From contig JABVCE010000007.1 in NCBI GenBank assembly GCA_014905635.1, forward strand, positions 1,485,821 to 1,505,820: DNA of 20,000 bases. Direction: 5' to 3'. The DNA is from Scenedesmus sp. PABB004. Lineage: Eukaryota. A program made the translations under genes and the position numbers. The notes beneath the pieces are model-generated. The model did no database searches. It was given only the letters and a program-made list of their open reading frames with translations, and was not told where the DNA came from. Numbering within the stretch: position 1 is the first letter of the stretch; each line of letters begins with the position of its first letter. Below, one piece after another: positions 109 through 19,742 of this stretch.

Positions 109-1294
109 CTCCTCGCCGACGTGCGAGAAGTCGTTGAGCTCGCCGCCGCAGATGCCGCACGCGTTGACCGAGCTGGTCAGGCGCTTGCCGCTGCCAATGA
201 CGTTGGCCTGGCCGGCGACGCGCGGCGCGCGCGCGGCGAGGCCCGCACCGTCGGTCGCCGCGCGCGCGCGGGCGCTGTCGCGCGTGCGGCGGCGCGGCGC
301 ACCATCTGCTCGCTCGCGACCTCTGCGAGGTCTCTGCCGAGGATGCCGAAGTAGAGGCCGTACCAGAGCAGCACGAGGCTCAGCCCCGGCTCCACCCACC
401 GTGCGAGCAGCAGGCCGACGCCAAACATGTCCAGCACCAGCAGCGCGTACCCCGCCATGCCCACGCCCACGCTCACACGGTGCGCGCCCAGGAACCAGGC
501 GTACACCTGCGCGCCGCCGGCGCGGGGGGCGGGGGGGGGGGGGGGGGGGGGTCGGCCGCCGCCGCCGCCGCGCCTGCCGCCGCCGCCGCCGCCGCTGCGC
601 CTGCCGCCGCCGCAGCGCTGCCCGCGCGGCGCGCGCGCACCCGGCGCGGCAGTGTGTGGTGCACGCGCTTGCCGAGGCACTGCCCCACCAGGTAGCCCGT
701 GACGCCCGAGTAGACCGCCCAGACGGCGAGGAAGCGCCAAAACTTGAGGTGCACGCTGAACACGGCGGGCATGAGCCACAGCCCCGCGAGGCTCACCTGC
801 GCCGTCGCCGGGGCGGCGCGCCGGCGCGGTCGCGCGGCCGCGCGGGCCGGACGGCGCGGCGCCGCGCGCCGCGCGCTGCGGCGGCGCTGGTCGCCCCGCC
901 CGGCCCGCCCGGCTGGCCGCCGCGCACCAGCTCGTAGGAGCGCTTGTGCTGCTTGCGCCACACCACCAGGCCCGTCTGGGCGCCCAGGATCATGAACTGC
1001 GGCGCGCGGCGCGGCGTCGGCAGCAGCGGCCCGGCCGCCGCCGCGCGGATCGGGCCGCCGCAGCCTCACCAGCATCATGTACATCAGCAGCACTGCCCAG
1101 CCGGGCGAGATGCGGTCCTCCTCCACGTCGATGAAGGCGGTGGCGTTGGTGGCGTTCGCCGAAGCGTTCAGCGCCCAGCCCCCGGCCGCCAGGCCCGAGC
1201 CGTTCATGCTGTTGGCTGCAGAGCCGTTCATGGCGTGCAGGGCGACGCCCACGGCCTTTCCAGCGCCCCCATCAGCCGGTGCGGGCCCACCCAT
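109..1294 (-). CDS. RNF121: RNF121/RNF175-like multi-pass membrane RING E3 ubiquitin ligase, 3'-partial. Exons 1294-1070, 996-928, 796-641, 506-303, 207-109; continues off the left edge
   Basis: Manual splicing at GT..AG sites joins one frame: MGGPAP...WAVLLMYMML|FMILGAQTGLVVWRKQHKRSYEL|VSLAGLWLMPAVFSVHLKFWRFLAVWAVYS...LPRR|VYAWFL...LLWYGLYFGILGRDLAEVASEQM|ANVIGSGKRLTSSVNACGICGGEL. The 'YGLYFGILGRDxAE', 'PRRVYxWFL' and 'WRKxHxRSY' motifs followed by the start of a RING (CGIC) match the family from memory. Confidence 0.88.
524..612. repeat. Intronic poly-G run (G21 at 531-551) followed by (GCC)n-rich low-complexity repeat
   Basis: Directly visible; lies within intron 3 (507-640) of the RNF121-like gene. 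Confidence 0.9.
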
Positions 1295-1950
1295 CGCGGA
1301 CAGCAGCGCGCGCCGCGCCCAGCCGAGGGCGCATGGGCTGGCCGCGGGCGCGTGACGGACGCGCAAAGGCGTGCTGCAGCGCCGGGCCGCCCAGCCGGTG
1401 ATCACAGCAGCCGGGCGCCGAGGGCCGGCGGAGCGATGCGCGCTGCTGCTGCTGCTGCTGCGGGCTTGCGGCGGCGGGCGTGGTTGGGGCGCGGCTCGGG
1501 TGTCGCTGTGGCTGCCCTTGGGAGCCTCAAGTGTGGGAGTCTGTTGGAGGCGTGACGGCCAGGTCGCGCGGCGGCGGTACGACTGCGTCTTTGGCGGTTC
1601 TGAGCCGTCTCTGCCCTGCGCGCACGGTACGTGCGGAGCGAGGCGGCCATGCTGGCGGCGGGCTGCGGGCGCCGCGGGGTGGCCGTCGATGAATGAGAGC
1701 CGCCCTGCAGCGCGCCCAATTGCGCGCGGCGCCAATGGCCGCCGGACGCCGGCGCACTGTTATGTGCCGTGTTGTGGCCCGCGCCGCGCCGGCGGCGAGG
1801 CCCCCGCCGCGTGGCGCCTGCGCGACCCTCGTGCCGAGGACGCTGAGCGCGGAGTTGTGGGCACCCGCCGCGCCGGCCAAGCCCCCGGTCAGCGGCGCGG
1901 TCAGCCGCGCACGGCGGCGGGCGCCGACCGGCCGAGCGCTCGCCGGCGCC
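1295..1950. promoter_or_regulatory. Putative bidirectional promoter and 5'-UTR region between head-to-head RING genes
   Basis: Start codons at 1294 (-) and 1951 (+) diverge ~650 bp apart. Two CCAAT motifs lie near 1716-1736. TSS positions are not determined. Confidence 0.5.
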
Positions 1951-3333
1951 ATGCCGCCGCGCTCCCAGGTGGCCTGCCTGGCGGTGGCCCTGCAGGACCA
2001 CATGAGCGCCCTGCTGGCGCTGCCGGGCGCGCGGCCGCCCGGCAGCGCGCCCGGCGCGGCGCCGTCGCTCGCGCAGCGCCTGGGCCTCGCGCCGGCGCCG
2101 GCGGCGCTGCTGACGCCAGAGCAGTGGGAGGCGGTGCACGCCGGCGCGCGCGCGCGCGCCGACCCGCGCGTCGACGCCTGCGCGGTCTGCCTCGAGCCCT
2201 TTGCCGACTGCGCGACGGCGCAGGCACTGCTCAGCTGCGGGCACGTGTTCCACGCGGCCTGCCTGCGCGCGTTCGAGGCGCACGCGCGGTCCCGCGCCTG
2301 CCCGCTCTGCCGCGCGCCCTGCTACCAGACGCGCGCCATCACCGACGCCGCGGACGCGCGCGCCGCGGCCGCCGCCACGCGCATCCAGGCGGTGGCGCGC
2401 GGCTGGCTGGCGCGGCGGGCGCTCGTCGCGGCGCTCGTGCGGCAGCCGCGGCCGCCGCGCGCACAGCGCCTGCGGCGGCTGTGGGCGGCGGGGCGACTGG
2501 CGGCGGCGGCGGGGGCAGCGCTGGCGGCGGGCGCCGGCGCCGGCGCCGGCGACCTGGACGGCCTGTTTGCGGAGCTGGACGCCAGCCTGGGCGCGAGCAG
2601 GCGCCTGGCCGACCCCGCAGCAGCGCGCGCAGCGGCCGCGGCGGGCAGCGACGGGCAGGCCGCCGGCGGCTGCAAGCCCAACGCGCCCGCACCCCGGGCA
2701 GAGTTGCAGGAACAGCCACGCCACGCAGGCCGGCCAGCTGCCGCTGCGACGCCACCCCGCCGCGGCTGGCCGCAGCGGCGAACGGCCGGCACCAGGCCCG
2801 CAGCAGCTGGCAGTGCGGGCGCTGTCAGCGAGGGGGCACTGCCGGCAATGGCGCCGCCGCGCGCCCCGAGGCACGCGCGAGGACGCAGCCGCGGCGACGC
2901 AGGACCGCCTGTTTCACCTGCCACCGCAGCTGGCGCGGCGGCAGTGGAGCGGGCAGCGGTGGCCCAGGCTGCGCGTGCGGAGCAGCAGCAGCAGCAGCGG
3001 CAGTTTCTCGAGCAGCAGGCGGCAGCGCCCGACGGTTAAGTGGCGCCGCGGCCGCGCCGGCCAGCACCCGGCCTCGCGGCCGACTGGCTGGCCGTGCTCG
3101 CGCACGCCTGCGAGAGCGGCGAGACCGACTGCGCCATATGCCTCGGCGCCCTGGCGGGCCCGCGCGAGGCGGCGGGCGTCGCACTCCTGTCCTGCTCCCA
3201 CGTCCTGCACGCGTGCTGCGTCGCGAGCTTTGAGGCCTTTGAGGCCGGCCGCGGCGGGCAGCCCAGCTGTCCCGTGTGCCGCGCACCGTACGAGCGGCGC
3301 TGCTTTGAGGTGGTGCCCGCGCCTGAAGCGTGA
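1951..3333 (+). CDS. RNF32: RNF32-like protein (RING-H2, IQ motif, RING-H2). In-frame TAA at 3037-3039 is probably intronic or an error
   Basis: gccATG at 1951. Motifs in order: 'ALQDH', 'SLAQRLGL', 'LTPEQW', RING1 CAVC...LLSCGHVFHAACLRAFE...CPLCR, IQ motif 'ATRIQAVARGWLARR', 'LFAELDASL', RING2 CAIC...LLSCSHVLHACCVASFE...CPVCRAPY, then TGA at 3331-3333. This is the RNF32 architecture. Exon structure between ~2610 and ~3070 is uncertain. Confidence 0.85.
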
Positions 3334-3664
3334 GCGCGCGTGACGGGCACGTCGTGGGAGGCGACCGGGCAGCGGGCGGGCGGGCAGCGGGCGGGCGGGC
3401 GGCTGAACCGCTGCCGGCGCAGGGAGGGGCAGCAGTCTCTGATCCCTGCGTGCCCAGCCGCGACGCGCCCACGGCCAGCTGCGCTCCGGAACGCGCTGTT
3501 GCTGCCGCCGCCACCCGCGCCGCAGCTGGCTGCCCCGGCCCCCAGCGCGCCGACCGGGGCTCCGGGCCTAGGGCTGCTGCCGCGCGGGAAGCGCCATGCT
3601 GGCGGCGCTGGGGCAGCAGCGCGGGGCCAGCAGACGCGTGGCGCATGCGCTGAGGGAGTGGTGC

Positions 3665-3692
3665 GATAAAGATAAAGATAAAGATAGTTACA
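3665..3692 (-). other. Retroposon-like 3' terminus: TGTAA signal immediately followed by a (TATCTT)n simple-repeat tail
   Basis: The + strand reads (GATAAA)3GATA at 3665-3686, then G, then TTACA at 3688-3692. The - strand reads ...CTATGGTGTAAC-TATCTTTATCTTTATCTTTATC. This is an AT-rich island in very GC-rich DNA. Confidence 0.65.
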
Positions 3693-3761
3693 CCATAGGC
3701 TCGCGCCCATTGGTCCCGCGCCCCTGGTGCGACCTTCGTGAGAGCGGCGGGGCGGCAAAAA

Positions 3762-3856
3762 GGCGCGCGCGCGGGCGGCGCGCGGCCCGCGGCGCGGCGC
3801 GGCCGCCGCCGGCGGCCCTCGGCGGCGCAGCCCGTGGCCGGGCAGCACGTGGGAGC
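3762..3856. repeat. First partial unit of the 171-bp tandem array, left of the hAT insertion
   Basis: Matches array units (ggcgcgcgcgcgggcggcgcgcggcccgc...gggcagcacgtgggagc) and continues in register at 7139 after the transposon and TSD. Confidence 0.95.
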
Positions 3857-3960
3857 CAGTGATTCGTGATACGCGCGTATCGACCCCTTGTATCCAGAAA
3901 TACGCGTACTGATACGGATACGCGTACGGATACGCCAAATACGCCGCCTGATACGTCAGC
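3857..3960. repeat. hAT left TIR and subterminal GATACG/AATACG motif cluster
   Basis: gtgatacgcgcgtatc...aaatacgcgtactgatacggatacgcgtacggatacgccaaatacgccgcctgatacg. These are likely transposase binding sites, by analogy to Ac subterminal repeats. Confidence 0.85.
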
Positions 3961-4101
3961 CCGCCAGGGGCTTTGCATGCTGCTGCGCCGCGGCTGGTCT
4001 GGTAAATTCCACCGATAATTTTGCTGCCCGCGCCGCTCCACGGATAGAAAGACGTTCGCAGAGTGCACTGCGCGCCGCTGCGCGGCCGTTCGCCGGCTGA
4101 A

Positions 4102-6821
4102 ATGTCCGCCCCGGGCCCGGAAGCTGCGGCGGATTGGAGCGCCTCCAACGTCGTCGCCGACCACTTCGAGGTCTGTACGGCGCCTCCAAGGCCTGGTTCG
4201 AGCTCCCACAACAAGACCTACACGTGCAAGTGGTGTTCAACCACCTTCTCAGGCTCCGTCACCCGGGCGCTCGCCCATCTGGCGGGCATTGTGGGCATAG
4301 GCGTCGCGGCGTGCGCGGCGATCTCTGAGGGCGTCAGGAACAAGTTCAAGGCTGAGTGGGCGAGCAAGCAAGCAGCCACGAAGAAGCGCCGTGCACCGCT
4401 CGGCGGTGACGCTCAGCAGCAGCGCAGCACCCCCGCCTGCGCCGGCAGCCCCCCCGGGGGCTCTGGCCACAGCAGCGCCGCCAGCCGGGTCCAGGTGCTG
4501 GTCGAGCGAGAAGCGCCGGCGGGCGGCGCGGGGTGGGGCGGGCGCGTCGCACGCGAGCGCGCCGCACGGCGCCGCGCGGCAGCAGCGCCCACGAGCGCCG
4601 CTGCCCGCCGCCGCTGCCGCAGGGCCCGCTGGAGCGGTCCTTTCAGGTCGCGGAGATCGCCCACGTGAATGCCGCTCTCACGGACTTTCTGTACGCTGAG
4701 GGCCTGCCCCTGCGCCTGGTGAAGAGCCCGTGGCTGCGCGCTTTCGTCAACGCGCTGCAGGGCATGAAAGGCAAGTACACGCTCCCGTCGTACGACAACG
4801 TGAGAACCAGGCATCTGCAAGAGGCCAAGGACCGCGTGGACAAGAAGCTGCAGGCTTGGCAGCAGCGCTGCCCGCAGAGCGGCGTCACCATCTGCAGCGA
4901 TGGTTGGAGCGACCGCCAGGGCAACCCGTTGCTGAATGTTCTTGCTGTCAACCCAAAGGGCGCCAAGTTCATCACCGCTGTCGACACCACCGGCAAGACC
5001 AAGAACGCTGAGTATGTCGCTGGCGTGCTGATGAACGTGATTGAAATGGTGGGGCCTGAGCACGTCGTGCAGGTGCGGGGCGGGGGCGCACGAGCGCCCC
5101 GGCAGCCCGCAACGGCCGAGGTGCAGCGTGACGCATGTGCCCCGCCTTCCCCAGGTGTGCACGGACTGCGCTGCCGTCTGCAAGGCGGCCGGCGTGCTGA
5201 TCATGGCGCGCTGGCCGCACATCACTTGGTCGCCATGCGTGGCGCACGTGTGTGACCTCGCGCTGGAGGACCTCTTTTCCAAGGTGGACTCTTTCAAGGC
5301 CGCCCACGAGGAGAACAAGGCGTTCATCACGTTTGTGAGGTTGGTGGGGGCACGGCGCCGGGGCACGGGAGCAGGTGCGGGCGCGGGCGCCGGCGCCGGC
5401 GCTGCGGCGGCAGCAGCGACCACTGCTCTCTCTCTTTTTCCCGTGTCTGCCCGACTTCCCTAGGAACCACCACAGCACGCTGGCGGCGTGGAAGCAGTTC
5501 AACCACAGCGACGCGACCGGCGCGACCGACGCGGAGCGCAGCGAGCTTCAGCGCACCAACAAGCTGCAGCTGATCAAGCCGGGTGAGACGCGCTTCGCCA
5601 GCGCGCACCTCATGCTGGAGCGCGTGGCGAAGCTCAAGAGCAAGATCAGGCAGTATGTGGTGTCTGAGCACTGGGCCGTTGCCATCAGCAACTTCAAGCC
5701 GGGGGACAAGGTGTGCAGCGGCGGGTTGCAGCACGCGGCTAGGCTGCGCTGTGCAGCCTGTAGCTGGGCTGCTGCCCACGCCCGCCGACACCACCCCGCC
5801 GCTTGCTAGGCTCTCGCCAAGAAGTTCGAGAGCCTTGTCACCAGCGCCAAGTTCTGGGAGCAGGTTGGTCGTGCTCGCCCGCCCACCGCGCGGGCGGCGC
5901 GGGCCCGCCTGGCCCCGCGCCAGACCAACGCCCGCCCTCACTTCGCCCACCGCGTCAGGTGGAGCTGGCTGTGCAGGTGTGCACGCCGATTGTCAAGTTG
6001 CTGCGACTGGCGGACGGCGACGCGCCCAGCGCGAGCAAGATCCACGCCCACGCGTTCTCAGTGCGCGCGCGCGCTCCTAGTGCCCGGGCTGCAGCGCCCG
6101 CCGCGGGCGCGCGCCGCACGCGTGCGCTGGGCGCGCAGCACGCGCTCACAGCGCGTGCGGCGCTGTCCGTGCGCAGGTGAAGAGCTTGCTGCGCGAGATG
6201 GCTGAGCAGTTCAGTTCAGTTCAGCAAGAACAAGAGCCGCCCCTGCTGCGCGCCACTGACTGGGAGCTGGTGCAGAAAATTTGGGACGACCGCTGGGACA
6301 TGATGGACAGCCCCCTGCACGGGGCCGGCTACACCGTCGACCCCGAGTACCTCGGCGACCAGGGGATCCCGGTCGGCAACATCACGGACAAGTGTGTGCG
6401 CGACTGGCACACCATGTGTGAGAAGCTGCTGCCCACCATTGAGGAGCGAACCCAGGCGATGGCGGGGTACATGGCGTTCCGCAACGGCGAGGGGTCGTTT
6501 GGCCAAGACCTGGCCAAGGCCGTCGCGCCCATCACCCCGGCGCACCAGTGGTGGGAAACCTACGGCCAAGCCTGGCCCGAAGCGCAGCGCGTGGCGGTCA
6601 GGGTGCTCTCCCAGGTCGCCTCCGCCAGCTCTTGCGAGCGCGCGTGGTCAGCCTACGACTTCATCCACAACAAGCGGCGCAACAGGCTCACCCCGCAGCG
6701 CGCGCGCGACCTCGTGTACGTGTTCACCAACACGCGCCTGGCCACCAAGATCAGCGCAGAGGGGGGCGAGCAGTTCCACGGCTGGGACGAGGAGGAGGAG
6801 ATGTCGGAGAGCGAGCAGTGA
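4102..6821 (+). CDS. hAT transposase, 691 aa (BED zinc finger, DUF659-type RNase H-like core, C-terminal dimerization domain). Exons 4102-4494, 4623-5072, 5155-5339, 5464-5710, 5810-5863, 5959-6060, 6177-6821
   Basis: Six GT..AG introns (82-128 nt) give one open frame of 2076 nt. Motifs: BED finger (YTCKWC...TRALAHL...C), catalytic D in 'ICSDGWSD', D in 'QVCTDCA', CxxH 'PCVAHVCDL', 'GETRF', 'WWETYG', and catalytic E in 'SASSCERAWS...KRRNRL'. Confidence 0.93.
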
Positions 6822-6944
6822 GCGCCGCCGCACGTCCGGCGCGGCGGGCACGCCGCGCGGCGCGCCGCGCAGCGTGCGCCGCGCAGCGCGCGCAGCGCAG
6901 CGCGTGCAGGTGCTGCACAGAGCCCAGGGGCGGCTGCGAGGCTT

Positions 6945-7016
6945 GGCGGCTGGGCTGGGCGGCTGGGCTCGGCGGCTGGGCGGCTGGGCTGGGCGGCTGG
7001 GCTGGGCGGCGGGCGG
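6945..7016. repeat. Short GGCGGCTGGGCTG-type tandem repeat in the hAT 3' non-coding region
   Basis: ggcggctgggctgggcggctgggctcggcggctgggcggctgggctgggcggctgggctgggcggcgggcgg is directly visible. Confidence 0.8.
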
Positions 7017-7027
7017 TAACAGTGAGA

Positions 7028-7130
7028 CGTATCAGGGCCGTATCGCAGCCGCATCGGACCGGCGGCGGCGTATTTTTCACGTATCGCGTATCGCGTATCG
7101 CGTATCACGTATCACGTATCCAAATCCCTG
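7028..7130. repeat. hAT right subterminal CGTATC cluster, (CGTATC[G/A])n heptamer run and right TIR
   Basis: cgtatcag...cgtatcgc...cacgtatcgcgtatcgcgtatcgcgtatcacgtatcacgtatccaaatccctg. The motifs are inverted relative to the left-end GATACG copies. Confidence 0.88.
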
Positions 7131-9927
7131 GTGGGAGCCCCGCACCCCCACTCCGCAGGGGCGGCGGGGCAGCGGAAACGGCGCACGGCAGCGCTGCGCC
7201 GCGGCGCCGCGAGCGGCGCGCGCGCGGGCGGCGCGCGGCCCGCGGCGCGGCGCGGCCGCCGCCGGCGGCCCTCGGCGGCGCAGCCCGTGGCCGGGCAGCA
7301 CGTGGGAGCCCCGCACCCCCGCTCCGCAGGGGCGGCGGGGCAGCGGAAACGGCGCACGGCAGCGCTGCGCCGCGGCGCCGGCGAGCGGCGCGCGCGCGGG
7401 CGGCGCGCGCTTGCGGCGCGGCGCGGCCGCCGCCGGCGGCCCTCGGCGGCGCAGCCCGTGGCCGGGCAGCACGTGGGAGCCCCGCACCCCCGCTCCGCAG
7501 GGGCGGCGGGCAGCGGAAACGGCGCACGGCAGCGCTGCGTCACGGCGCCGGCGAGCGGCGCGCGCGCGGGCGGCGCGCGGCCCGCGGCGCGGCGCGGCCG
7601 CCGCCGGCGGCCCTCGGCGGCGCAGCCCGTGGCCGGGCAGCACGTGGGAGCCCCGCACCCCCGCTCCGCAGGGGCGGCGGGGCAGCGGAAACGGCGCACG
7701 GCAGCGCTGCGCCGCGGCGCCGGCGAGCGGCGCGCGCGCGGGCGGCGCGCGCTTGCGGCGCGGCGCGGCCGCCGCCGGCGGCCCTCGGCGGCGCAGCCCG
7801 TGGCCGGGCAGCACGTGGGAGCCCCGCACCCCCGCTCCGCAGGGGCGGCGGGGCAGCGGAAACGGCGCACGGCAGCGCTGCGTCACGGCGCCGGCGAGCG
7901 GCGCGCGCGCGGGCGGCTCGCGGCCCGCGGCGCGGCGCGGCCGCCGCCGGCGGCCCTCGGCGGCGCAGCCCGTGGCCGGGCAGCACGTGGGAGCCCCGCA
8001 CCCCCGCTCCGCATGGGCGGCGGGGCAGCGGAAACGGCGCACGGCAGCGCTGCGCCGCGGCGCCGGCGAGCGGCGCGCGCGCGCGGGCGGCGCGCGCTTG
8101 CGGCGCGGCGCGGCCGCCGCCGGCGGCCCTCGGCGGCGCAGCCCGTGGCCGGGCAGCACGTGGGAGCCCCGCACCCCCGCTCCGCAGGGGCGGCGGGGCA
8201 GCGGAAACGGCGCACGGCAGCGCTGCGCCGCGGCGCCGGCGAGCGGCGCGCGCGCGGCGGCGGCGCGCGGCCCGCGGCGCGGCGCGGCCGCCGCCGGCGG
8301 CCCTCGGCGGCGCAGCCCGTGGCGGGCAGCACGTGGGAGCCCCGCACCCCCGCTCCGCAGGGGCGGCGGGGCAGCGGAAACGGCGCACGGCAGCGCTGCG
8401 CCGCGGCGCCGGCGAGCGGCGCGCGCGCGGGCGGCGCGCGCTTGCGGCGCGGCGCGGCCGCCGCCGGCGGCCCTCGGCGGCGCAGCCCGTGGCCGGGCAG
8501 CACGTGGCAGCCCCGCACCCCCGCTCCGCAGGGGCGGCGGGGCAGCGGAAACGGCGCACGGCAGCGCTGCGCCACGGCGCCGGCGAGCGGCGCGCGCGCG
8601 GGCGGCTCGCGGCCCGCGGCGCGGCGCGGCCGCCGCCGGCGGCCCTCGGCGGCGCAGCCCGTGGCCGGGCAGCACGTGGGAGCCCCGCACCCCCGCTCCG
8701 CAGGGGCGGCGGGGCAGCGGAAACGGCGCACGGCAGCGCTGCGCCACGGCGCCGGCGAGCGGCGCGCGCGCGGGCGGCTCGCGGCCCGCGGCGCGGCGCG
8801 GCCGCCGCCGGCGGCCCTCGGCGGCGCAGCCCGTGGCCGGGCAGCACGTGGGAGCCCCGCACCCCCGCTCCGCAGGGGCGGCGGGGCAGCGGAAACGGCG
8901 CACGGCAGCGCTGCGCCGCGGCGCCGGCGAGCGGCGCGCGCGCGGGCGGCGCGCGCTTGCGGCGCGGCGCGGCCGCCGCCGGCGGCCCTCGGCGGCGCAG
9001 CCCGTGGCCGGGCAGCACGTGGGAGCCCCGCACCCCCGCTCCGCAGGGGCGGCGGGGCAGCGGAAACGGCGCACGGCAGCGCTGCGCCGCGGCGCCGGCG
9101 AGCGGCGCGCGCGCGGGCGGCGCGCGCTTGCGGCGCGGCGCGGCCGCCGCCGGCGGCCCTCGGCGGCGCAGCCCGTGGCCGGGCAGCACGTGGCAGCCCC
9201 GCACCCCCGCTCCGCAGGGGCGGCGGGGCAGCGGAAACGGCGCACGGCAGCGCTGCGCCACGGCGCCGGCGAGCGGCGCGCGCGCGGGCGGCTCGCGGCC
9301 CGCGGCGCGGCGCGGCCGCCGCCGGCGGCCCTCGGCGGCGCAGCCCGTGGCCGGGCAGCACGTGGGAGCCCCGCACCCCCGCTCCGCAGGGGCGGCGGGG
9401 CAGCGGAAACGGCGCACGGCAGCGCTGCGCCACGGCGCCGGCGAGCGGCGCGCGCGCGGGCGGCTCGCGGCCCGCGGCGCGGCGCGGCCGCCGCCGGCGG
9501 CCCTCGGCGGCGCAGCCCGTGGCCGGGCAGCACGTGGGAGCCCCGCACCCCCGCTCCGCAGGGGCGGCGGGGCAGCGGAAACGGCGCACGGCAGCGCTGC
9601 GCCGCGGCGCCGGCGAGCGGCGCGCGCGCGGGCGGCGCGCGCTTGCGGCGCGGCGCGGCCGCCGCCGGCGGCCCTCGGCGGCGCAGCCCGTGGCCGGGCA
9701 GCACGTGGCAGCCCCGCACCCCCGCTCCGCAGGGGCGGCGGGGCAGCGGAAACGGCGCACGGCAGCGCTGCGCCACGGCGCCGGCGAGCGGCGCGCGCGC
9801 GGGCGGCTCGCGGCCCGCGGCGCGGCGCGGCCGCCGCCGGCGGCCCTCGGCGGCGCAGCCCGTGGCCGGGCAGCACGTGGGAGCCCCGCACCCCCGCTCC
9901 GCAGGGGCGGCGGGGCAGCGGAAACGG
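7131..9927. repeat. GC-rich tandem satellite-like array, 171-173 bp unit, ~16.3 copies (plus ~0.5 copy left of the hAT)
   Basis: Anchor GTGG(G/C)AGC recurs at 7131, 7302, 7473, 7644, 7815, 7987, 8160, 8333, 8504, 8676, 8848, 9019, 9190, 9362, 9534, 9705 and 9877. Units are nearly identical, with two main variants (cgcggcccgc versus cgcgcttgc). Confidence 0.98.
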
Positions 9928-9929
9928 GG

Positions 9930-10222
9930 TTTCTCAGGGGTTTTTGCAGCAAAGCCAACTGATGCCCCCTGGTGTGTGCGTGTGTCGTCGCGCGGCGCGG
10001 GGGCTGATGCCGCTGAGGCCGGCCCCTGCCGCCGCCAGCGTGGATGGCGTTTGCGCGTGATCTCTGCGCGGAGGCTTGGCGCCGGTGCACCTCGCTGCAC
10101 CGATGCCCGGTGCGGCTCGCCGCACCGGAAGGGGGGTGTGCGGCCTGATCTGCTGCTGCCCCTTTGATTGCGGGGCATCACCTGGTCTCCTTGGGCGCCC
10201 GTTGGGCGTTGGCCTCTGGCTG
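9930..10222 (+). mobile_element. L1-family 3'-UTR fragment (~293 bp) in sense orientation
   Basis: Reverse complement of 10388-10680 and 12006-12298, with about 4-5 substitutions. It lacks its own last ~140 nt and poly(A). Confidence 0.92.
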
Positions 10223-10963
10223 TTTTTTTTTTTTTTTTTTTTTTGGTTACAATGGGTGACCAGACAAGGACCGAGGCCCAGGGGCAGCCCACTGAAAAAA
10301 GCTCCAACGGGAAGAGCGCAGCAACCCCTCGTGAAAAACCGCGCCCCGGCGCCCCCCGAGAGGGGGCCCACACATCACCCAACGGCACAGCCAGAGGCCA
10401 ACGCCCAACGGGCGCCCAAGGAGACCAGGTGATGCCCCGCAATCAAAGGGGCAGCAGCAGATCAGGCCGCACACCCCCCTTCCGGTGCGGCGAGCCGCAC
10501 CGGGCCTCGGTGCAGCGAGGTGCACCGGCCCCAAGCCTCCGCGCGGAGATCACGCGCAAACGCCATCCACGCTGGCGGCGGCAGGGGCCGGCCTCAGCGG
10601 CATCAGCCCCCGCGCCGCGCGACGACACACGCACACACCAGGGGGCAGCAGTTGGCTTTGTTGCAAAAACCCCTGAGAAAGCCGCGCACCGATGAGAAAG
10701 CCGCCCCACCGGGCAGGCAGCACGCCAAGCCGCCGCGCACGGAGCGCGTGCAGCCGCCAAAACACGCCGGCGGCGCCAGGGGCCGGCCCATCGGCTGCAG
10801 CCCCCTCGCCGCGCGACGACCAACACGCAGACACCAGCCCCGCGGCACGGGCGGACACCGCCCAACCTTGCACGCTGCAGAAGAAGCGCGACACGCAGCC
10901 AGCCGGGGTCGCAGCAAGCCCGGCCGCGGACCCCCCGGCCCCTGCAGCTAGCCGCCGCGCTGT

Positions 10964-10995
<32 letters not shown>

Positions 10996-11839
10996 GGTCC
11001 TGCGCCGCCGCGGGGCCAGCGCCGGCGCCGCCGGCAGCGCCGGCACGCCCGCTGCGGTGAGCCGGAACTCCATTGTGAAGCGGCCCCCGTGCTGGCCCGT
11101 GCGCGCGATGACCCCTCGGTGGCACCACCGGCGTTCGAAATCTGCCTGAGTGAGCTCCTTGCCGGAGCCCGACAGCCAGGAGCGCGGCACGCCCGCCAGC
11201 GCGCGCACGTCCATCGCTGCCTTGCGCCAGTCCAGCACGACTGCGTCGCGCACCGAGTACACAAAGATGCGAATCGCCGCCACAGGCGCGTGCCCGGGCT
11301 GGCCGCCGCCGTGCCGCGCGCGCGCGGCGAGCAGGGCGCGCAGCAGCAGCAGGCGGAGGTGCGTCCAGAGCTGCTGCAGCTCCGGCGCGACGCCCGACCT
11401 GGCAAAGTCGTCCGCCAGCATCACCCTGGGCGGGGGCGGCGCGCGCGGGAAGCCCGGCTGCAGCCGCGCCCAGAGGTGAGCAAACCACTGCAGCACCGCC
11501 GCCGCCACGGGGCATCCGCCGAGGACGTGGCCGAGCGTCTCCAGCGGCGGCTGCTGCTGTGCGCGGCAGAGCGGGTGCGGGCACGCCAGCTCCGCCAGCT
11601 CCGGCGCCGCGCGCTGGTAAGAGAAGACCCTGTCGCCGCTGACGCGCACCCCGCCGTGCAGCAGGCTCCAGCCAAAGTGTCGCAGGCGCGCGCGCGGCAT
11701 GCGCGCCTGCTGCGCGCGCGCGTAGCAGGCGGCCCAGGCGGGCGGCTCCGCGCGCTCGCCGGCGCGCAGCGGCGCAGTCGCACCAGTGAGCGGGTCGACG
11801 AGGTCGTTGGCCGCCGGCTCCTGAACCAGGGTCCTGCGC
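10223..11839 (-). mobile_element. L1-clade LINE copy A: 3' 1.6 kb (ORF2 C-terminus, ~700-nt 3' UTR, poly(A))
   Basis: Poly-T22 at 10223-10244 and TTACA (TGTAA on - strand) at 10247-10251. Near-identical to 11843-13455 at an offset of ~1617 bp. Homology ends at gtcctgcgc (11839), followed by 'acc' and the next poly-T. Confidence 0.95.
10948..11839 (-). pseudogene. C-terminal fragment of L1 ORF2 (zf-RVT/CCHC region), frame open to TAG
   Basis: RRTLVQEP...RLRHFGWSLLHGGV...ELACPHPLC...LETLGHVLGGCPVA...W...FERRWC...QRGG*. No start codon. Confidence 0.85.
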
Positions 11840-12566
11840 ACCTTTTTTTTTTTTTTTTTTTTTGTTACAATGGGTGACCAGACAAGGACCGAGGCCCAGG
11901 GGCAGCCCACTGAAAAAAGCTCCAACGGGAAGAGCGCAGCAACCCCTCGTGAAAAACCGCGCCCCGGCGCCCCCCGAGAGGGGGCCCACACATCACCCAA
12001 CGGCACAGCCAGAGGCCAACGCCCAACGGGCGCCCAAGGAGACCAGGTGATGCCCCGCAATCAAAGGGGCAGCAGCAGATCAGGCCGCACACCCCCCTTC
12101 CGGTGCGGCGAGCCGCACCGGGCCTCGGTGCAGCGAGGTGCACCGGCCCCAAGCCTCCGCGCGGAGATCACGCGCAAACGCCATCCACGCTGGCGGCGGC
12201 AGGGGCCGGCCTCAGCGGCATCAGCCCCCGCGCCGCGCGACGACACACGCACACACCAGGGGGCAGCAGTTGGCTTTGCTGCAAAAACCCCTGAGAAAGC
12301 CGCGCACCGATGAGAAAGCCGCCCCACCGGGCAGGCAGCACGCCAAGCCGCCGCGCACGGAGCGCGTGCAGCCGCCAAACACGCCGGCGGCGCCAGGGGC
12401 CGGCCCCATCGGCTGCAGCCCCCTCGCCGCGCGACGACCAACACGCAGACACCAGCCCCGCGGCACGGGCGGACACCGCCCAACCTTGCACGCTGCAGAA
12501 GAAGCGCGACACGCAGCCAGCCGGGGTCGCAGCAAGCCCGGCCGCGGACCCCCCCGGCCCCTGCAG

Positions 12567-12582
12567 CTAGCCGCCGCGCTGT

Positions 12583-12613
<31 letters not shown>

Positions 12614-15600
12614 GGGTCCTGCGCCGCCGGCGGGGCCAGCGCCGGCGCCGCCGGCAGCGCCGGCACGCCCGCTGCGGTGAGCCGGAACTCCATTGTGAAG
12701 CGGCCCCCGTGCTGGCCCGTGCGCGCGATGACCCCTCGGTGGCACCACCGGCGTTCGAAATCTGCCTGAGTGAGCTCCTTGCCGGAGCCCGACAGCCAGG
12801 AGCGCGGCACGCCCGCCAGCGCGCGCACGTCCATCGCTGCCTTGCGCCAGTCCAGCACGACTGCGTCGCGCACCGAGTACACAAAGATGCGAATCGCCGC
12901 CACAGGCGCGTGCCCGGGCTGGCCGCCGCCGTGCGCGCGCGCGCGGCGAGCAGGGCGCGCAGCAGCAGCAGGCGGAGGTGCGTCCAGAGCTGCTGCAGCT
13001 CCGGCGCGACGCCCGACCTGGCAAAGTCGTCCGCCAGCATCACCCTGGGCGGGGGCGGCGCGCGCGGGAAGCCCGGCTGCAGCCGCGCCCAGAGGTGAGC
13101 AAACCACTGCAGCACCGCCGCCGCCACGGGGCAGCCGCCGAGGACGTGGCCGAGCGTCTCCAGCGGCGGCTGCTGCTGCGCGCGGCAGAGCGGGTGCGGG
13201 CACGCCAGCTCCGCCAGCTCCGGCGCCGCGCGCTGGTAAGAGAAGACCCTGTCGCCGCTGACGCGCACCCCGCCGTGCAGCAGGCTCCAGCCAAAGTGTC
13301 GCAGGGCGCGCGGCATGCGCGCCTGCTGCGCGCGCGCGTAGCAGGCGGCCCAGGCGGGCGGCTCCGCGCGCTCGCCGGCGCGCGGCGGCGCAGTCGCACC
13401 AGTGAGCGGGTCGACGAGGTCGTTGGCCGCCGGCTCCTGAACCAGGGTCCTGCGCTGCTCCAGCTGCTGCTCCCGCCGCTGCTCATGCTCCTCGCGCCGC
13501 GCCGCGGCGGCAGCGGCCGCCGCCGGCCCGACGCGCTCCATGACGTGGCGCCGCGGGGGCGAGACTTTCTGCCACGCCGGCAGCCCAGGCTCCGGGTCTG
13601 GCGTCTCGGCCCGCTGCCGCTCCGCCCAGCTGCGCTTCTGGCCCGCCTCCCGCCGCGCGATGGCGCTGGCCGGGCATGCCTGGCCGTAGCCGGCGCGCCA
13701 GAGGCCCGGCACGCAGCCAACGCCGGGCGTCCAGCCCCTGCCGGCGTGACCTCGCGCGCGCAGCGCAGCTGCAGCAGCCGCAGGGTCGCGCCGCGCACCG
13801 TAAACTGCATGACCGTGGCCGCGTGCCCGAGCCCCCACACGGAGGGGTCGACGCGGACGTCAGGCCAGAAGCCCACGAGGAACCATCGCCGCGCCCTGCT
13901 GTGCATCTCCGGCTGCTCCGCCGGCGCCGCTGCCGCCGGGCGCTCCGGCCGCCGCGCGCTGCGCGCGCGCCGCTGGCCGCGGCGCCTGCGCCGCGTCCAC
14001 CACGCAGCAGTCCTCCCACCCCCCCGCCGCGACTATCTCGGGCGGGGGCTCGGCGGTGCGGAGCCTGCTGTCAGGCCCCACCTCGAAGAAGCTCGCCGCT
14101 GCCGCGCCCAGCGCCCCCGCCGTACCCACCGCACACGGCAGCGGGCGGCGGCGGCGGCGGCTGCGCGGCTGCTCCACCGGCAGCGCCGCCAGCGGCTGCT
14201 GGGGCTGCTGCACCACGCCGCCGCCCGGCGACGGCGGCGCCGCGCTGGGCCGCAGCGCCTGCCAACCCGGCGCGCTCGGCCCGCTGCGCGCGAGCGCCTG
14301 CTGCCACTCACCCGGCATGACGACGCCGTCGGCGGCCGGCCGCCCCGGCAGGCGCGGCGCCGCCTGCCCGAGGCTGTCGCTGCGCAGCTCCGCGGGCAGG
14401 TCCTCGAGCGACGCGATGCGCGCGCCGCCCAGGGCCGCGCCGACGCTGCAGTTGCCCACCAGGGCCTCCACCCTGATCTGCTCCACGGTCATGCTGCCGT
14501 GGGGGATCACCCGGTGCACGCCGAGAGCCGCAAACGCGCAGGCGATCGCGCCCCACCGCCACGGCAGCTGCGCCCGCAGCTCCAGCGCGGTGCCCTGCAC
14601 GAGGGCGGCGGTGCCCCGGCCAGGCAGCGCGCGCGCGAAGCGCGCCGCCGCGGGTGGCTTCCAGGCCGCCCCCACCGGGTGCAGCAGCCTGGCGGCCGTC
14701 TTGGCCAGCATTGCCGTGGTGAAGGCCGCGACGTCGACCTGCGCCTCGCCGCCCATGCTCGCGGGCAGGCACGCGATGGCCGCCCGCGGAACCTGCCTGA
14801 TAATGCGGTTGTCGCTCTCGCGGATGCACCAGTTGCCGACGATGTAGGCGGTGACGCGCCGCTGGATGAGGCGCAGGAGGTCGGCCGGCACCGGCACAAA
14901 CTGCGCGTGCCAGCCCACGCAGGCCGCGAGCACCTGGCGCGCAACGTGCCGGCGGCCCGGGCGCGTGAGCGCGTACCGCGACCAGTGCGCGATGCGGCAG
15001 GTGATGGTGCGCAGCCGCTCGCGGTAAAGCTGCGCCGCGTGCCGCTCGACGCCGGTGGCAGAGAGCAGCACGCCCAGGTGCCTGATCGGCGCCTGCTCTG
15101 TGTCCGGGAAGCACACGCCCGTGCTGCACTCGACCAGCTGCCCGCTGCCATCCGGCTGCAGCTGCAGCGCCGGGTGGTCGCCCAGCAGCATGCCCTTGCA
15201 CTTGGCCAGGTTGAGCTGCGCGCCGCTGGCCAGGCAGAACGGCGCGACGGCGCCGTCCAGCAGCCGCTTGGCGCTCTCCACTGACGCTGCGTGCAGGGTG
15301 GTGTCGTCTGCGTGCTGGTGGCAGCAGGGCGCCGGCCCTGCGCCGCCGGGCAGCTGCAGGCTGGCAAAACCGGGCTGCCGCTGCACGCGCCGGCACATGG
15401 CCGCCAGCGGCTGCGCCGCCAGCACATACAGCAGCGGGCTGAGCGGGCTGCCCTGCGCGCAGCCCGACGCCACGCTGAACTCGCGGCTGACATGGCCGCC
15501 GTTGAAGGCGACGCGCGCCCGCGTGCCTGCGAGCAGCAGGCGGACCCAGCGCGTGGTTGCGTCGGGCAGGCCCATGCGCGCGAGGCACCTGAACAGCCAG

Positions 15601-17582
15601 CCGCGGTCGAGGCGGTCGTAGGCCTTGGCAAAGTCGAGGAACAGCAGGCAGCCCGGCGCGCGCGTCTCGCGCGCGCGTGTCGATCGCCTCCAGGTGCATG
15701 AGCACGTTGTCGGCGATGTCCCGGCCCGGCACAAACGCCGTCTGCGTGCCGTCGACGATGGAGCCGAGCGCGGGCGCGAGCCGCTGCACGATGGCCTTGG
15801 CTGCGATCTTGGTGTCTGTGTTGAGCAGCGTGATGGGGCGGTAGCTGCTGACCGCCTCGCGCGGCTGGCCGCCCTTGTGGATCAGCGTGATGAGCCCGAG
15901 CCGCTGCGTCGCCGCGAGCTGCGGCGCGCCGGCTGCCTGGTTGAGGTAGTGATAGTTGAAGGCTTGGACGAGCGGCTCGCCCAGCACCTCCCACAGGGCC
16001 GCGTAGGCCTCGCAGGTGAGGCCGTCGCTGCCCGGCGCCGCGCCGCGCGGCAGGCTGGCCAGCGCCGCCGTCGCCTCGGCGAACGTGAGCAGCCCCTCGG
16101 GGTCCTGCCCGCGGCAGGCCCGCTGCTCGGCTGCCGAGAGCTGCGGTCCAGCGCGTCCAGCATGCAGTCCTGCTGCTGCTGGTCGGTCGGCCGGACGCCG
16201 AACATGCCGCCCGGCACGTCCGCGTCGAAGAAGTCGGCGATGATGCGGCCGCCCTCCTGGATGCCTGCCCTGGAGGTAAGCGGCACGGCGGGCTGGCCCG
16301 GGCGGGCGAGCGCGTGAATTGGCTGCGCGCCGCCCGGCGCGCGGCCCAGGCGGTGGAACCAGCGGCTGGGCCCCTCGCCGCACTCTCCCATACCGCCTCC
16401 AGAGCGTCCGCCTGCTGCCGCGCCGTCGCCGCCTCCGCCGCGGCGAGCCCGCTCTGCGGCGAGGGCGTTAGCGGCGGCCTCGGGGCAGCCGTACTGCTGG
16501 CTGCCTGCCGCCCAGCGCGCTGCGCGCAGCGCGTGCCGCAGCTGGTGGAGCTCCTGCTGCTCCTGCTGCCGCATCTCCGCACGCAGCTCCGCCGCGATGC
16601 GCCGCACACTCTGTTTGAGCTGCTCAAACAGCTCGCCCGGGTCCAGCCCTGCGTCCCGCAGCTGCTGCGCGGCAGCTGCTACACGGTCGCGGAGCTCGGC
16701 CCGGCGGCTGGCGCAGGCGAGCAGGTCGTTGGGGAACGTCCAGCGTCGCCGCCCAGCCAGCGGCTGTCCCGGCCGCTGCAGGCTGACGCTGACCGGCCTG
16801 TGGTCGCTGTGGCACAGCGGGTGGTGCGCCGCACCGACCAGCCAGTGGTCGGCGAGCTCCTGCGCCACAAACCACGCGTCGATGCGGCCACCGTGCACCG
16901 CCCCGTCGCGCCGCTGGTAGTGCGTGGGCTGCGCGCGGAGCTGCGGCGCCACGCGCAGCAGCGCGTCGACGACGCCCGCCGCCGCGTTGGCGCGGGCGAG
17001 GTCCGCGCCGCCGTGGCACCTGCCAGACCGCGCCGCCGCCTGCCCCGGCAGGGGCTGGACGTCAGCGGCGAGACGACGCAGTTGAAGTCGCCGCCCGCCA
17101 GCAGCAGCGCGCCCCCGCCGGCCCTGCCAGGAGGGCCTCCTGGTACGGCCCGCGAAGAACGCAGGGCGCTCTGCCCGCTCGGACGGCGCGTAAACGCCCA
17201 GCACCGAGAGGCGGTCGCCATGCTGCGTGCGCCAGCCCACGCGCAGCAGCCTACCTACAGTGTCGCAGTACTCGATACTCGGCGCCTCCCCAGCGGGCAC
17301 GACGCCATCGCGGATCAGGATGCCCACGCCCCGCGACGCTGAGCTGAGCTGCCGTGGCTCCACCATGCTGAACCCTGCCATGGCCGGCCGGGGCCGGCCC
17401 CGCCTTGGACCCACCTGCGGGCCTGGCCGTCGCCCTGCGCGTGCGTCTCTGTGAGGACGACCACGTGGTAGCGGAGGCCAGGAGCCAGGCGAAGAACGCC
17501 TGTCGGCTGGGCTTGTGGTTGAGGCCGTTCACGTTGACGGCCACCACCTTGAGCCCCCCCAGGCCGCGCTCGCGCGCGACAT
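12567..17582 (-). CDS. L1 ORF2: AP endonuclease, reverse transcriptase and C-terminal CCHC/zf-RVT; broken by multiple frameshifts in this sequence
   Basis: APE motifs: LKVVAVNVNGL, VVLTETH, RGVGILI, VLGVYAPS, LAGGDFNCV, RIDAWFV, HSDHRPV. RT motifs: APGSDGLT, YRPITLLNTDTKI, QTAFVPGRDIADNV, LDFAKAYDRLD, GCAQGSPLSPLLY, QHADD (HADD at 15314-15303), RHLGV. C-terminal CPHPLC...ETLGHVLGGC. The motifs are spread over several ORF-track frames. The ATG at 17582 needs one more G in the G7 run to join the APE frame. Confidence 0.9.
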
Positions 17583-17599: not shown

Positions 17600-19742
17600 G
17601 CGGCGCCGCCGCGGGCTCGCGGGCGACTCGCCCGCCTGCCAGCCGGGGGCGAAGCCGCGGTTCGCCTCGCTCCAGGTGCCCAGCCCCGGCCGCTGTGAGC
17701 GCCTCGGGCCGCCCGCGGCGGCCTCCGCGGCGACCTCGTTGCCCCGCTGCCCCGGCGCGCTGCGCGCGCGCGCTGCGGCGCGCTCGCCGCCGCCGCCGGC
17801 GCGCGCGCGCCGCCGCACCAGTCCGGGCTGCGCGAGCGCGCCGCCACCGGCGCGCCGGCGCTCGCGCGCCGGCGCGACGCGCTGCGCGAGCGCTCCGCGG
17901 CGGCGCGCGCCGCCGCCGCCAGCCCGCTCGCACCGCCGCGCCGCCGCGCCGCGTGGCCGGAGCTCTCCGCGGCGTCGCCTGCCGCCGCCGCTGACGCGCC
18001 AGCGCCGCCCTGCTGCCGCGGCACGCTGCGCGGGCGTGCCGCGGGGGGCGCGCGCCGCCGCCGCGGCGGCGCGGCGTCGGCTGCCGTCCGCACCAGCGGG
18101 CCGCGCGCTGCCGCGGGGCTGGCCTCGGCCCCCGCCGCCGCCGCTGCCGCCTCCGCCGCCGCCGACTGCGCCGCGCAAGCCGGCCCGGCCTCGGCGCGCG
18201 CCGCCGCGGCGGCACCGGGCCCAGGCCCGCCCTCGTCGTCCGTGCCGTACCCTGCGTCTGGCGGCAGGCCGAAACGGCGGCGCAGCCACGCGCGCCGCGC
18301 GGGCCAGGCGCACGCACCGCCGACGGGGTCCGGCAGGCTCTGTCGCATGGCCGCCCAGTACTCCTCGCGCAGCCGCTCGCAGTCGCTGCCGCCCAGGTCG
18401 CCGCCGCCCCATTCCTCGCAGGCGCTCCTGGCCGCAGCGATCAGGTCGTCCGCGTCCGGCCCGTCACACCAGGCCCGGAACGCGGTGCTGCGTGCCGTGC
18501 TGCCCCCTGCGGTGCGCTGCTCGCGCGGCGCCGCGCCGCGCCGCGCGCCCGCGCGCCGCGGTGGCCGCGCCGCGCGCCGCCGCGCCCCCTCGCCGCGGGC
18601 GGGCGGGCTGCCAGCGGGCTGCTCCCCACCGCCGCCGTCTGCGTCCACCTGCATCGGGTCGCACCCGCCGGGCAGCGTCCCGGCGCCGGGCAGCTGCGTC
18701 GCGGCCGCCGCTGCCGCGGGCTCCGACGCGGCCGCTCGTCCAGCTCCATCGCCGCCGGCCCGATCCTTGCCGCCGCGTCGCCGGCACCGCCGCCGGGCAG
18801 GTCCTGCGGCTGCCGCTGCTGCTGCCGCTGCTGACCCTGCTCCATCGCCGCGGGGCGGCCCCTGGCCGCCTCGCCCGCGGCGCCCGCGCCGCGCCGCCGG
18901 CTCGCGCGCCGCCAGCGCGCGCCGCACCTGCGCCCGGCACGCCCTGCGCGGGCGGCGGCGCCACGGGGGCGCGGGCGCGCGGGCCTGCGCACGCTGCGGC
19001 GCAGCCTCGGCCCCTCCGCGTCCGCCTCCAGCCGCGCCAGCGCCCGCTCGTAGGTCTGCTCGCTCGCACGCCAGCCGCGCCACTCGCGCCCGCGCGGCCG
19101 GCGACGTAGACGCGCACGCGCCGGCCGTCGGACACAAAGTCGTCTGGCAGGCGCTGAGCATGGCTCGCGCGCCGGCGGCGTCCGCACGTACGCGACGAGC
19201 GTGTCCGCGCAGGGCAGCGCCGCCGGCGCGTCGCCGAACGCGCTGCTGCAGCCCCAGTGCTCGGACACCGCCGAGGTCAGGGCCGTAACCCGCGGCGACC
19301 AGCAGGGCGGCCATGACGCCCTGGCCGCGCTCCCACAGGTCCTCCGCAGCCCCTGCACCAGCACCTTGACGGTGCCGGCCGGCGCGGCCGTCCTGCCCCA
19401 TGCCGCCGCACCGCGCAGCCGCCGAGCTCAGCACGCCCGCGGCGCGACCGCAGCCGCCGCGGCGGCGACTGCTCGTCCGGCTTGACGCGCGATCGCGACG
19501 GTGGCCCCGGGGGTGCGCTGCCCGTCGCGGCGCACGTGGTGTAGCCGGCCGCCAGGGGAGCGGCTGCCCGCCCTGCACCAGCAGCTGCCCGAGCTGCGCG
19601 ACGCCGCGCACGCCCGCCTGGAAGTGCGCGGCGCGGCTCGCCTCCCGCTGCGCGCGCCGTGCGGCCGGAAGGCTGCACGGCCTGCCCCAGCGAGAGCACG
19701 ACCGCGCGCCGGGTCGCCGCCCGGCCCGAGAGCCGGCGCCAT
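17600..19742 (-). CDS. Putative L1 ORF1 (frameshifted; boundaries approximate)
   Basis: Lies directly upstream of ORF2 on the same strand. Protein-like segments occur in shifting frames (AAHFQAGVRGVAQLGQLLV; GVMAALLVAAGYG; ADTLVAYVRTPP; DGRRVRVYVAGR; FRAWCDGPDADDLIAAARSACEEW...LREEYWAAM...WLRRRFGL). Candidate ATG at 19742. Confidence 0.55.

Follow-up and report, generated by a model that had tools for sequence, protein, structure and literature searches.

A probable L1-related retroposon 3' end with a hexamer tail at the edge of a 171-bp satellite array in Scenedesmus sp. PABB004

The route by which satellites reach new loci is poorly understood, and an array joined to a 3' module of the long interspersed element (LINE) type would give a testable route by retroposition. 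Such a combination is present in a 20,000-nucleotide stretch of contig JABVCE010000007.1 of Scenedesmus sp. PABB004 (referred to as the window, with positions counted from its first letter), in which a 171-bp satellite array lies next to a sequence resembling the minus-strand 3' end of a retroposon (Table 1). A preliminary description of the interval 3665-9927 regarded the array as the body of a dispersed retroposon. Two questions are raised by this locus: whether 3665-3761 is a retroposon terminus, and whether the array travelled with it. To the first, we think that the answer is yes, and that this is a genuine 3' end of an L1-related retroposon. To the second, our answer is tentative and held with somewhat less than even confidence: a real L1-related retroposon 3' end lies at the edge of a repeat cluster, and the array has grown and become homogeneous at this site, starting from that copy or from sequence beside it.

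On the minus strand, the array and a stretch of unique DNA are followed by the hexamer TGTAAC (3692-3687) and the tail TATCTTTATCTTTATCTTTATC (3686-3665), as had been described. The described agreement with the neighbouring L1 elements was likewise confirmed, both of their 3' ends reading TGTAAC(C) followed by A21-23. TGTAAC occurs three times in the window compared with 0.46 occurrences expected (at least three in 4 of 200 shuffles), and all three are on the minus strand directly before a tail, which is poly(A) in two cases and (TATCTT)n in the third. The hexamer tail motif, with 0.00 chance occurrences expected, is otherwise absent from the window. Non-long-terminal-repeat retroposons are characterised by a 3' tail of A or of a simple repeat set against unrelated flanking DNA, and (TATCTT)3.7 at 3686-3665 is a tail of this kind.

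The last 45 nt form one dominant predicted hairpin (-22.8 kcal/mol, 65% of the ensemble, z -3.52, with none of 200 shuffles equally stable), the outer stem of which, GCACCA/UGGUGU, closes 3 nt before the tail. Folds of 101-nt stretches were not significant (z -0.11 and 0.18), and at the equivalent L1 end a terminal hairpin is possible, also without significance (z -1.5; 16 of 200 shuffles). A scan against Rfam gave no family at its gathering score, the lone match (snoR79, E 3.2) being ignored, and a tRNA scan returned 0 tRNAs. According to the cited accounts, LINEs of the stringent type are recognised via a 3' stem-loop shared with partner short interspersed elements (SINEs) (PMC4176376, PMC1636434). 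The end at 3665 resembles UnaL2/UnaSINE1 of eel and ZfL2 of zebrafish as they are described there, in that the stem-loop stands directly before a short simple-repeat tail and is shared by differing bodies (PMC4176376, PMC1636434). However, unlike the stringent LINE/SINE pairs, the partner here appears to be of the L1/Tx1 type, with window copies carrying poly(A), and recognition of the hairpin by a reverse transcriptase (RT) is putative. The tail unit TATCTT matches none of the families checked. An L1-related 3' module that ends in a hexamer tail and not in poly(A) bears on the question of stringent versus relaxed 3'-end recognition within the L1 group.

The module also recurs outside the window. 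One public sequencing run of a freshwater metagenome, searched as contigs and designated X1, contained a fraction of 0.05 of the sampled words of positions 1000-4100, and yielded 31 matching pieces on 3000-7400, eight of which are listed. Four of the eight listed pieces match 3668-3725 over 41-56 nt with 1-4 mismatches, at contig depths of 8.5-147, and beyond the tail the contigs enter flanks of at least two unlike kinds, one rich in GC and the other in A. No meaning is attached to stretches of the window that X1 leaves uncovered. Since this match is too long to be chance, the tail, TGTAAC and the adjoining ~33 nt are, judged by sequence, a repeated module outside the window. The X1 copies depart from the window sequence at 3725, and the 171-bp unit is not found upstream of the module; within the 69 nt that separate TGTAAC from the array, recurrence in X1 is limited to the 3' half (3693-3725) and does not extend to the 5' half (3726-3761).

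In X1 the sequence upstream of the module (reverse complement) carries the motifs ATGTGTGG and GGNCCTTGTC, the letters being ATGTGTGG and GGACCTTGTC as read by eye from a 30-letter consensus of two contigs with an agreement of 0.75. In the window, ATGTGTGG and GGNCCTTGTC occur twice each, against 0.17 and 0.14 expected, and are confined to the two L1 3' untranslated regions (3'UTRs), where both lie in L1 sense orientation and precede TGTAAC in this order. This likeness of motifs suggests, as a lead, that the L1 lineage present in the window has a relative to which the hexamer-tailed module belongs. No RT gene carrying exactly this 3' end was found, TGTAAC alone being shared with the L1 ends of the window, and alignments of the 69 nt with L1 (scores 17 and 16) and with the hAT transposon inserted in the array (15 and 15.5) score below the control mean of 21.5.

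The reading of 3665-3761 as a retroposon 3' end is thus supported by the L1-type terminal hexamer, the simple-repeat tail, the significant hairpin and the recurrence in X1 with different flanks. An ordinary microsatellite lying by chance near a satellite edge, with no retroposon involved, would agree with the shortness of the tail (3.7 units) and the lack of a target-site duplication (TSD), but would leave to coincidence the position of TGTAAC, the hairpin (z -3.5) and the same 41-56 nt in X1 next to unlike flanks; it is already disfavoured and seems most improbable.

The second question concerns the array. At 7131-9927 it has a period of 171 bp, with 16.3 copies and 97% matches, and a period of 343 bp scores equally well. 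The preliminary description treated 3665-9927 as one array; the 171-bp array is there, but it is not uninterrupted, being split by a 3274-bp hAT element at 3857-7130. This element sits in the first array unit and has the full set of hAT characters: an 8-bp TSD, GTGGGAGC (3849-3856 and 7131-7138), short terminal inverted repeats (TIRs; CAGKGATT), and a transposase with DUF659 (2.1e-23) and the hAT dimerisation domain (Dimer_Tnp_hAT, 4e-10). Excision of hAT together with one TSD restores a continuous array of 2884 bp, with 250 of 255 positions matching interior sequence. The array is a satellite in the usual sense, long, head-to-tail and composed of homogenised units (16.8 units, 97% matches, 343-bp higher-order period). 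Resemblance between the array and GC-rich repeats at 17.7-18.9 kb was treated as low-complexity similarity. The hAT element itself carries subterminal repeats CGTATC(G/A) at 7080-7120, and its transposase frame is divided over several open reading frames (ORFs), through introns or decay.

The left edge of the array does not have the gradual character ascribed to it. The array had been said to pass through a degenerate unit piece (3744-3766) and ~55 nt of unique DNA; the unique stretch measures 69 nt (3693-3761), and the likeness of the piece to the unit is not above chance. MAFFT reproduces the proposed alignment only when a 37-nt gap is allowed, the local score of 14 that 3693-3761 attains with the unit is equalled or exceeded by 186 of 281 controls (natural, GC-rich segments taken from the window), and the composition-weighted score (18.1) by 92 of 583 controls. 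As the degenerate piece fails these controls, the array ends sharply at 3761/3762, where the boundary falls at an arbitrary phase of the unit, and the edge unit (3762-3856) is 100% identical to interior units, the identity running over 96 nt at 3762-3857. At its other end the array is directly joined to an L1 fragment (9927/9928). Within the window no array remnant is seen to the left of the tail.

Under the explanation that we prefer, 3665-3761 would be the 3' end of a non-long-terminal-repeat retroposon that is akin to the resident L1 lineage or relies on it; this end has a hairpin of 41 nt, then UAAC, then a short tail of (UAUCUU)n. Such a module is of the kind that may be recognised by a LINE reverse transcriptase priming at a nicked target. 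The array would begin 69 nt inside the retroposon copy and would have grown and been homogenised in place, through unequal exchange or slippage, its source being sequence of, or next to, this single copy; it would not have been reverse-transcribed ready-made and spread. The hAT and L1 insertions into the array would have come later, an order of events that, like recognition by the RT and expansion in place, we infer from the anatomy of the locus.

Several features are those of a local satellite: the 97% homogeneity, the 343-bp period, the use of the array as a hAT target and its border at an L1 junction. In addition, the module copies in X1 are not joined to the unit, and other arrays were not found in the collections searched. 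Tandem growth inside these elements does occur here, since ~110 bp are tandemly duplicated within the L1 3'UTR (10531-10641 vs 10725-10837, ~81%, spacing ~194 bp; also 12149-12455). Zepp-type L1s are described as nesting into existing copies and thereby building tandem 3' ends (PMC8226300), and for some Chlamydomonas chromosomes satellites flanking ZeppL clusters are reported (PMC9940879). Even in this modest reading, the locus shows clearly where a Zepp-like L1/satellite cluster ends in an alga that is very rich in GC and poor in repeats.

Some observations speak against expansion from the retroposon copy. No TSD of the copy was found in the window: the left flank GCTGAGGGAGTGGTGC is not repeated there at two or fewer mismatches. 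Derivation of the unit from the retroposon has no support in the window, the 69 nt being no more unit-like than control DNA, and the 100% identity of the edge unit would be expected of an array that was cut or delivered not long ago as much as of recent local growth. Finally, X1 is a metagenome and probably represents other organisms; its copies say little about the Scenedesmus genome, and two of its contigs are alike on both sides of the match (agreement 0.68 and 0.75) and may be one locus in two strains. As a separate observation, X1 contigs show 88-93% likeness to 74-96 nt of the unit (7253-7389), with no continuation of the array there; either a relative of the unit in dispersed form or mere GC-rich similarity could account for this, and no conclusion is drawn.

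Of the original proposal of a dispersed retroposon, the retroposon 3' end is borne out by hexamer, tail, hairpin and X1 recurrence, and the array as its dispersed body is not, for want of a TSD, a 5' end and the unit in the X1 copies. It is possible, if doubtful, that the array does belong to a mobile family of non-autonomous retroposons, each composed of an array, 36 nt, a shared 39-nt hairpin module and the tail, and copied in trans by an L1-type RT. The array abuts the 3' end with no other sequence between them and is absent beyond the tail; X1 shares only the last ~39 nt and the tail, with differing upstream sequence, which resembles the SINE-like borrowing of a LINE 3' tail (PMC4176376, in the part that treats such pairs); and L1-A21, L1-A23 and the array-bearing segment all point the same way, as they do in a Zepp-like nest. 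Against this family count the missing second array copy, the lack of a TSD in the window and of a defined 5' end (the right edge being an L1 junction), the absence of the unit from the X1 module copies, and the fact that high homogeneity and a dimer periodicity need no retroposition. The more specific proposal of a green-algal retroposon in which an array with a nucleosome-sized (171-bp) unit has borrowed its 39-nt hairpin module from a Zepp-like L1 lineage, and in which L1 machinery copies array transcripts, we regard as slightly more doubtful still.

The search for a second array copy covered protein databases and prokaryote and viral contigs, and its negatives are weak, these collections not including the genome of the alga. 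A 20-mer across TGTAAC and the tail found a single locus in metagenome contigs, a chance match in DNA of 41-48% GC that by eye has a prokaryotic-coding look. The terminus and the 171-bp unit gave 0 matches each in prokaryote contigs. In viral contigs these two likewise gave 0 matches each, as did the L1 end and the RT protein of L1. Translated searches were included because the array is open in most frames, so that gene callers may have translated other copies. They covered three of the six frames and are weak evidence of absence: the terminus frame against longer proteins gave 0 matches at E<=10 among 3160 candidates, the minus frame of the array 0 at E<=0.001 among 8000 candidates, and its plus frame 7 matches among 1.84 billion representatives, all of them weak and of low complexity and none at <=1e-10.

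The mobile reading can be compared with known systems. If it is right, the element would be like SVA and LAVA, as far as these have been compared, in combining a hexamer repeat, a tandem core and a retroelement piece and in being mobilised in trans by L1. The variable-number tandem repeat (VNTR) units of SVA and LAVA are 35-50 bp long. Unlike the element considered here, with its 171-bp unit and a tail that is not poly(A), SVA and LAVA are hominoid-specific in the cited accounts (PMC4432496, PMC7353768). An algal analogue of SVA/LAVA would, if true, extend VNTR-composite retroposons from hominoids to algae. Satellites borne by transposable elements (TEs), namely those of HINEs (PMC7492417), Tetris (PMC4079207) and the double-insertion model (PMC5932611), similarly tie an array of ~170-bp units to the terminus of a mobile element; however, as described, these are DNA transposons or tandem dimers of whole TEs, whereas here the terminus is retroposon-like and the unit unrelated to the flanking TE. 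A green-algal case is MSAT-11_cRei of Chlamydomonas, an array that may move as an array and shows that mobile satellites, by an unclear mechanism, exist in a green alga (PMC9940879, PMC9977147). In contrast to the TE-like terminus found here, the Chlamydomonas mobile satellite is described without TE features and with its mechanism unclear (PMC9977147, PMC9940879). A mobile array would, if true, provide a concrete mechanism for such mobile satellites and for the seeding of satellites beside L1-based centromere-like clusters.

A further explanation, which we consider unlikely, is that the satellite is independent and that a 5'-truncated retroposon copy of ~97 nt joined an existing array that it neither gave rise to nor carried. 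The join could have arisen by insertion at or near the array edge, by an insertion that deleted the target DNA from the nick up to the array, or by a template switch of the RT to other RNA or DNA. The abrupt junction at 3761/3762 at an arbitrary unit phase and the lack of relationship between the 69 nt and the unit are as expected from such an event, as is the absence of a TSD if target was deleted, and the array has plainly served as a landing pad for hAT and L1. However, a 5' junction in the array combined with a 3' junction outside it and the loss of all array to the left is a rare geometry, and no remnant of that array is seen left of the tail. The position of the tail, exactly at the border between single-copy DNA and cluster and 69 nt from the array, is hard to obtain from an unrelated insertion unless the target was deleted.

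The hairpin and the microsatellite also recall elements of the Helitron2/Helentron type. In a HINE-like non-autonomous element with a central satellite-like array, the hairpin would correspond to the 3' palindrome, and the T-rich run of hexamers would belong either to the element or to its T-rich target. HINEs, in the cited description, have a microsatellite, a short array of ~170-bp units and a terminal palindrome, lack TSDs and occupy T-rich sites (PMC7492417); hairpin, microsatellite and absence of a TSD are all present here, and Helitron2 is reported in relatives of Chlamydomonas (PMC8226300). Nevertheless this origin is very unlikely: the microsatellite belongs to the left and the palindrome to the right HINE module, but here both are at one end and the other end of the array is an L1 junction, and it explains neither why two L1 poly(A) ends have TGTAAC in common with this end nor the L1-like motifs in X1. 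No partner for a subterminal inverted repeat and no Rep/helicase were seen, the domain scan having covered 30 of the 80 listed ORFs of the window.

Read on the plus strand, the locus could instead be an SVA/LAVA-style composite, with (GATAAA)n at its 5' end, a short unique part, a VNTR and a piece of L1 3'UTR that once ended in poly(A), cut at 10223 by the minus-strand L1 nest; the left-flank sequence that its TSD would match is ...GAGTGGTGC. The order hexamer, unique sequence, array and L1 3'UTR is indeed present, as in the VNTR composites described (PMC4432496, PMC7353768). However, the reverse complement of TGTAAC beside the hexamer run then becomes a coincidence of ~1e-5, the missing L1 end (~140 nt and poly(A)) is not in the window, and the X1 copies share the hexamer-side module only and not the body, which makes this composite highly improbable.

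A real link between the array and the retroposon end is favoured by the nest-like layout of the cluster. Read along the minus strand, L1-A21 comes first, followed by L1-A23 and then by a third unit made up of a 294-nt antisense L1 piece, the array, the 69 nt, TGTAAC and the tail, all of one polarity; a single polarity of three units is, by analogy, how a Zepp-like nest grows. The 3665-3761 copy is the outer edge of this repeat cluster of 171-bp satellite, hAT and head-to-tail L1 3' ends, where it adjoins genic DNA.

Table 1. Positions of the features of the window, with the evidence for each
Feature	Position	Strand	Evidence or remark
ORF with RING-H2 (8.2e-09) and IQ motifs	1693-3039	+	domain scan
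Tail (TATCTT)3.7, 22 nt, reading (GATAAA)3.7 on the plus strand	3665-3686	-	abuts single-copy flank
TGTAAC (GTTACA on the plus strand)	3687-3692	-	terminal hexamer common to two L1 3' ends
Predicted 3'-terminal RNA hairpin	3690-3730	-	folding
Non-array sequence between TGTAAC and array, 69 nt	3693-3761	-	no above-control likeness to unit, L1 or hAT
Leftmost part-unit of the 171-bp array	3762-3856	.	100% identity to interior units
hAT DNA transposon within the array	3857-7130	+	TSD, TIR, domains
171-bp satellite, main body	7131-9927	.	16.3 units, 97% matches, 343-bp dimer period, GC ~88%
L1 3'UTR fragment, plus sense, 294 bp	9930-10223	+	inverted copy of 10387-10680 (98.3%)
5'-truncated 1.6-kb L1 3' end, TGTAACC+A23	10224-11843	-	99.07% over 1620 bp to 11843-13455
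Longer L1 copy, TGTAAC+A21, ORF2 with frame breaks	11844-17553	-	RVT_1, homologue mapping

The L1 part of the cluster comprises two head-to-tail L1 3' ends (10224-13455) that are 99.07% identical over 1620 bp, the second directly following the A21 tail of the first. From 10224 the plus strand reads T23-GGTTACA and the truncated copy, then T21-GTTACA and the longer copy. An RT-encoding ORF (13860-15734, minus strand) matches 87 proteins at E<=0.001, the closest two of which are annotated as 'transposon TX1 protein' of Scenedesmus sp. PABB004 (81% and 80% identity), and contains an RVT_1 domain (5.3e-17). The L1 ORF2 is traceable, with frame breaks, from the endonuclease start at ~17553 to ~12665, and homologues carrying PF03372 and PF00078 map by tblastn to 17553-14373. 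An L1-clade ORF2 with APE endonuclease and RT is thus accompanied by nested tandem poly(A) 3' ends, which are the characters of a Zepp-like cluster.

The resemblance to Zepp and ZeppL extends to the endonuclease and RT of the L1 clade, the head-to-tail truncated 3' ends placed after the previous poly(A), and the flanking satellite, as far as these are described (PMC8226300, PMC9940879). Unlike the Zepp/ZeppL elements of those descriptions, the cluster has a second, hexamer-tailed 3' end at its edge (PMC8226300, PMC9940879), and the term Zepp-like is used here on the basis of layout and ORF2 domains. The L1 nest may mark a centromere-like cluster in a repeat-poor alga.

The window has a GC content of 77%, with values of 66-89% along its length. 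A published table gives for Scenedesmus sp. PABB004 a genome of 39.8 Mb with 78.5% GC and 1.31% repeats (PMC12571836), and a repeat cluster as dense as that of the window is unusual for a genome of this type. The RING/IQ ORF, which precedes the tail on the plus strand, probably represents a host gene directly beside the cluster.

The L1 fragment that borders the array forms a 294-bp inverted repeat (9930-10680), with arms 163 bp apart and a spacer consisting of T23 and the last 140 nt of L1. Its plus-strand arm stops exactly at the poly(T), and the matching site in the intact L1 is not T-rich; nested insertion, fold-back synthesis or a part of a composite element are possible origins. Upstream of the L1 ORF2 start, GC-rich tandem repeats with periods of 23-72 bp (17741-18213) lie in a 915-aa open frame that has no Pfam match and may be the L1 ORF1 or 5' region.

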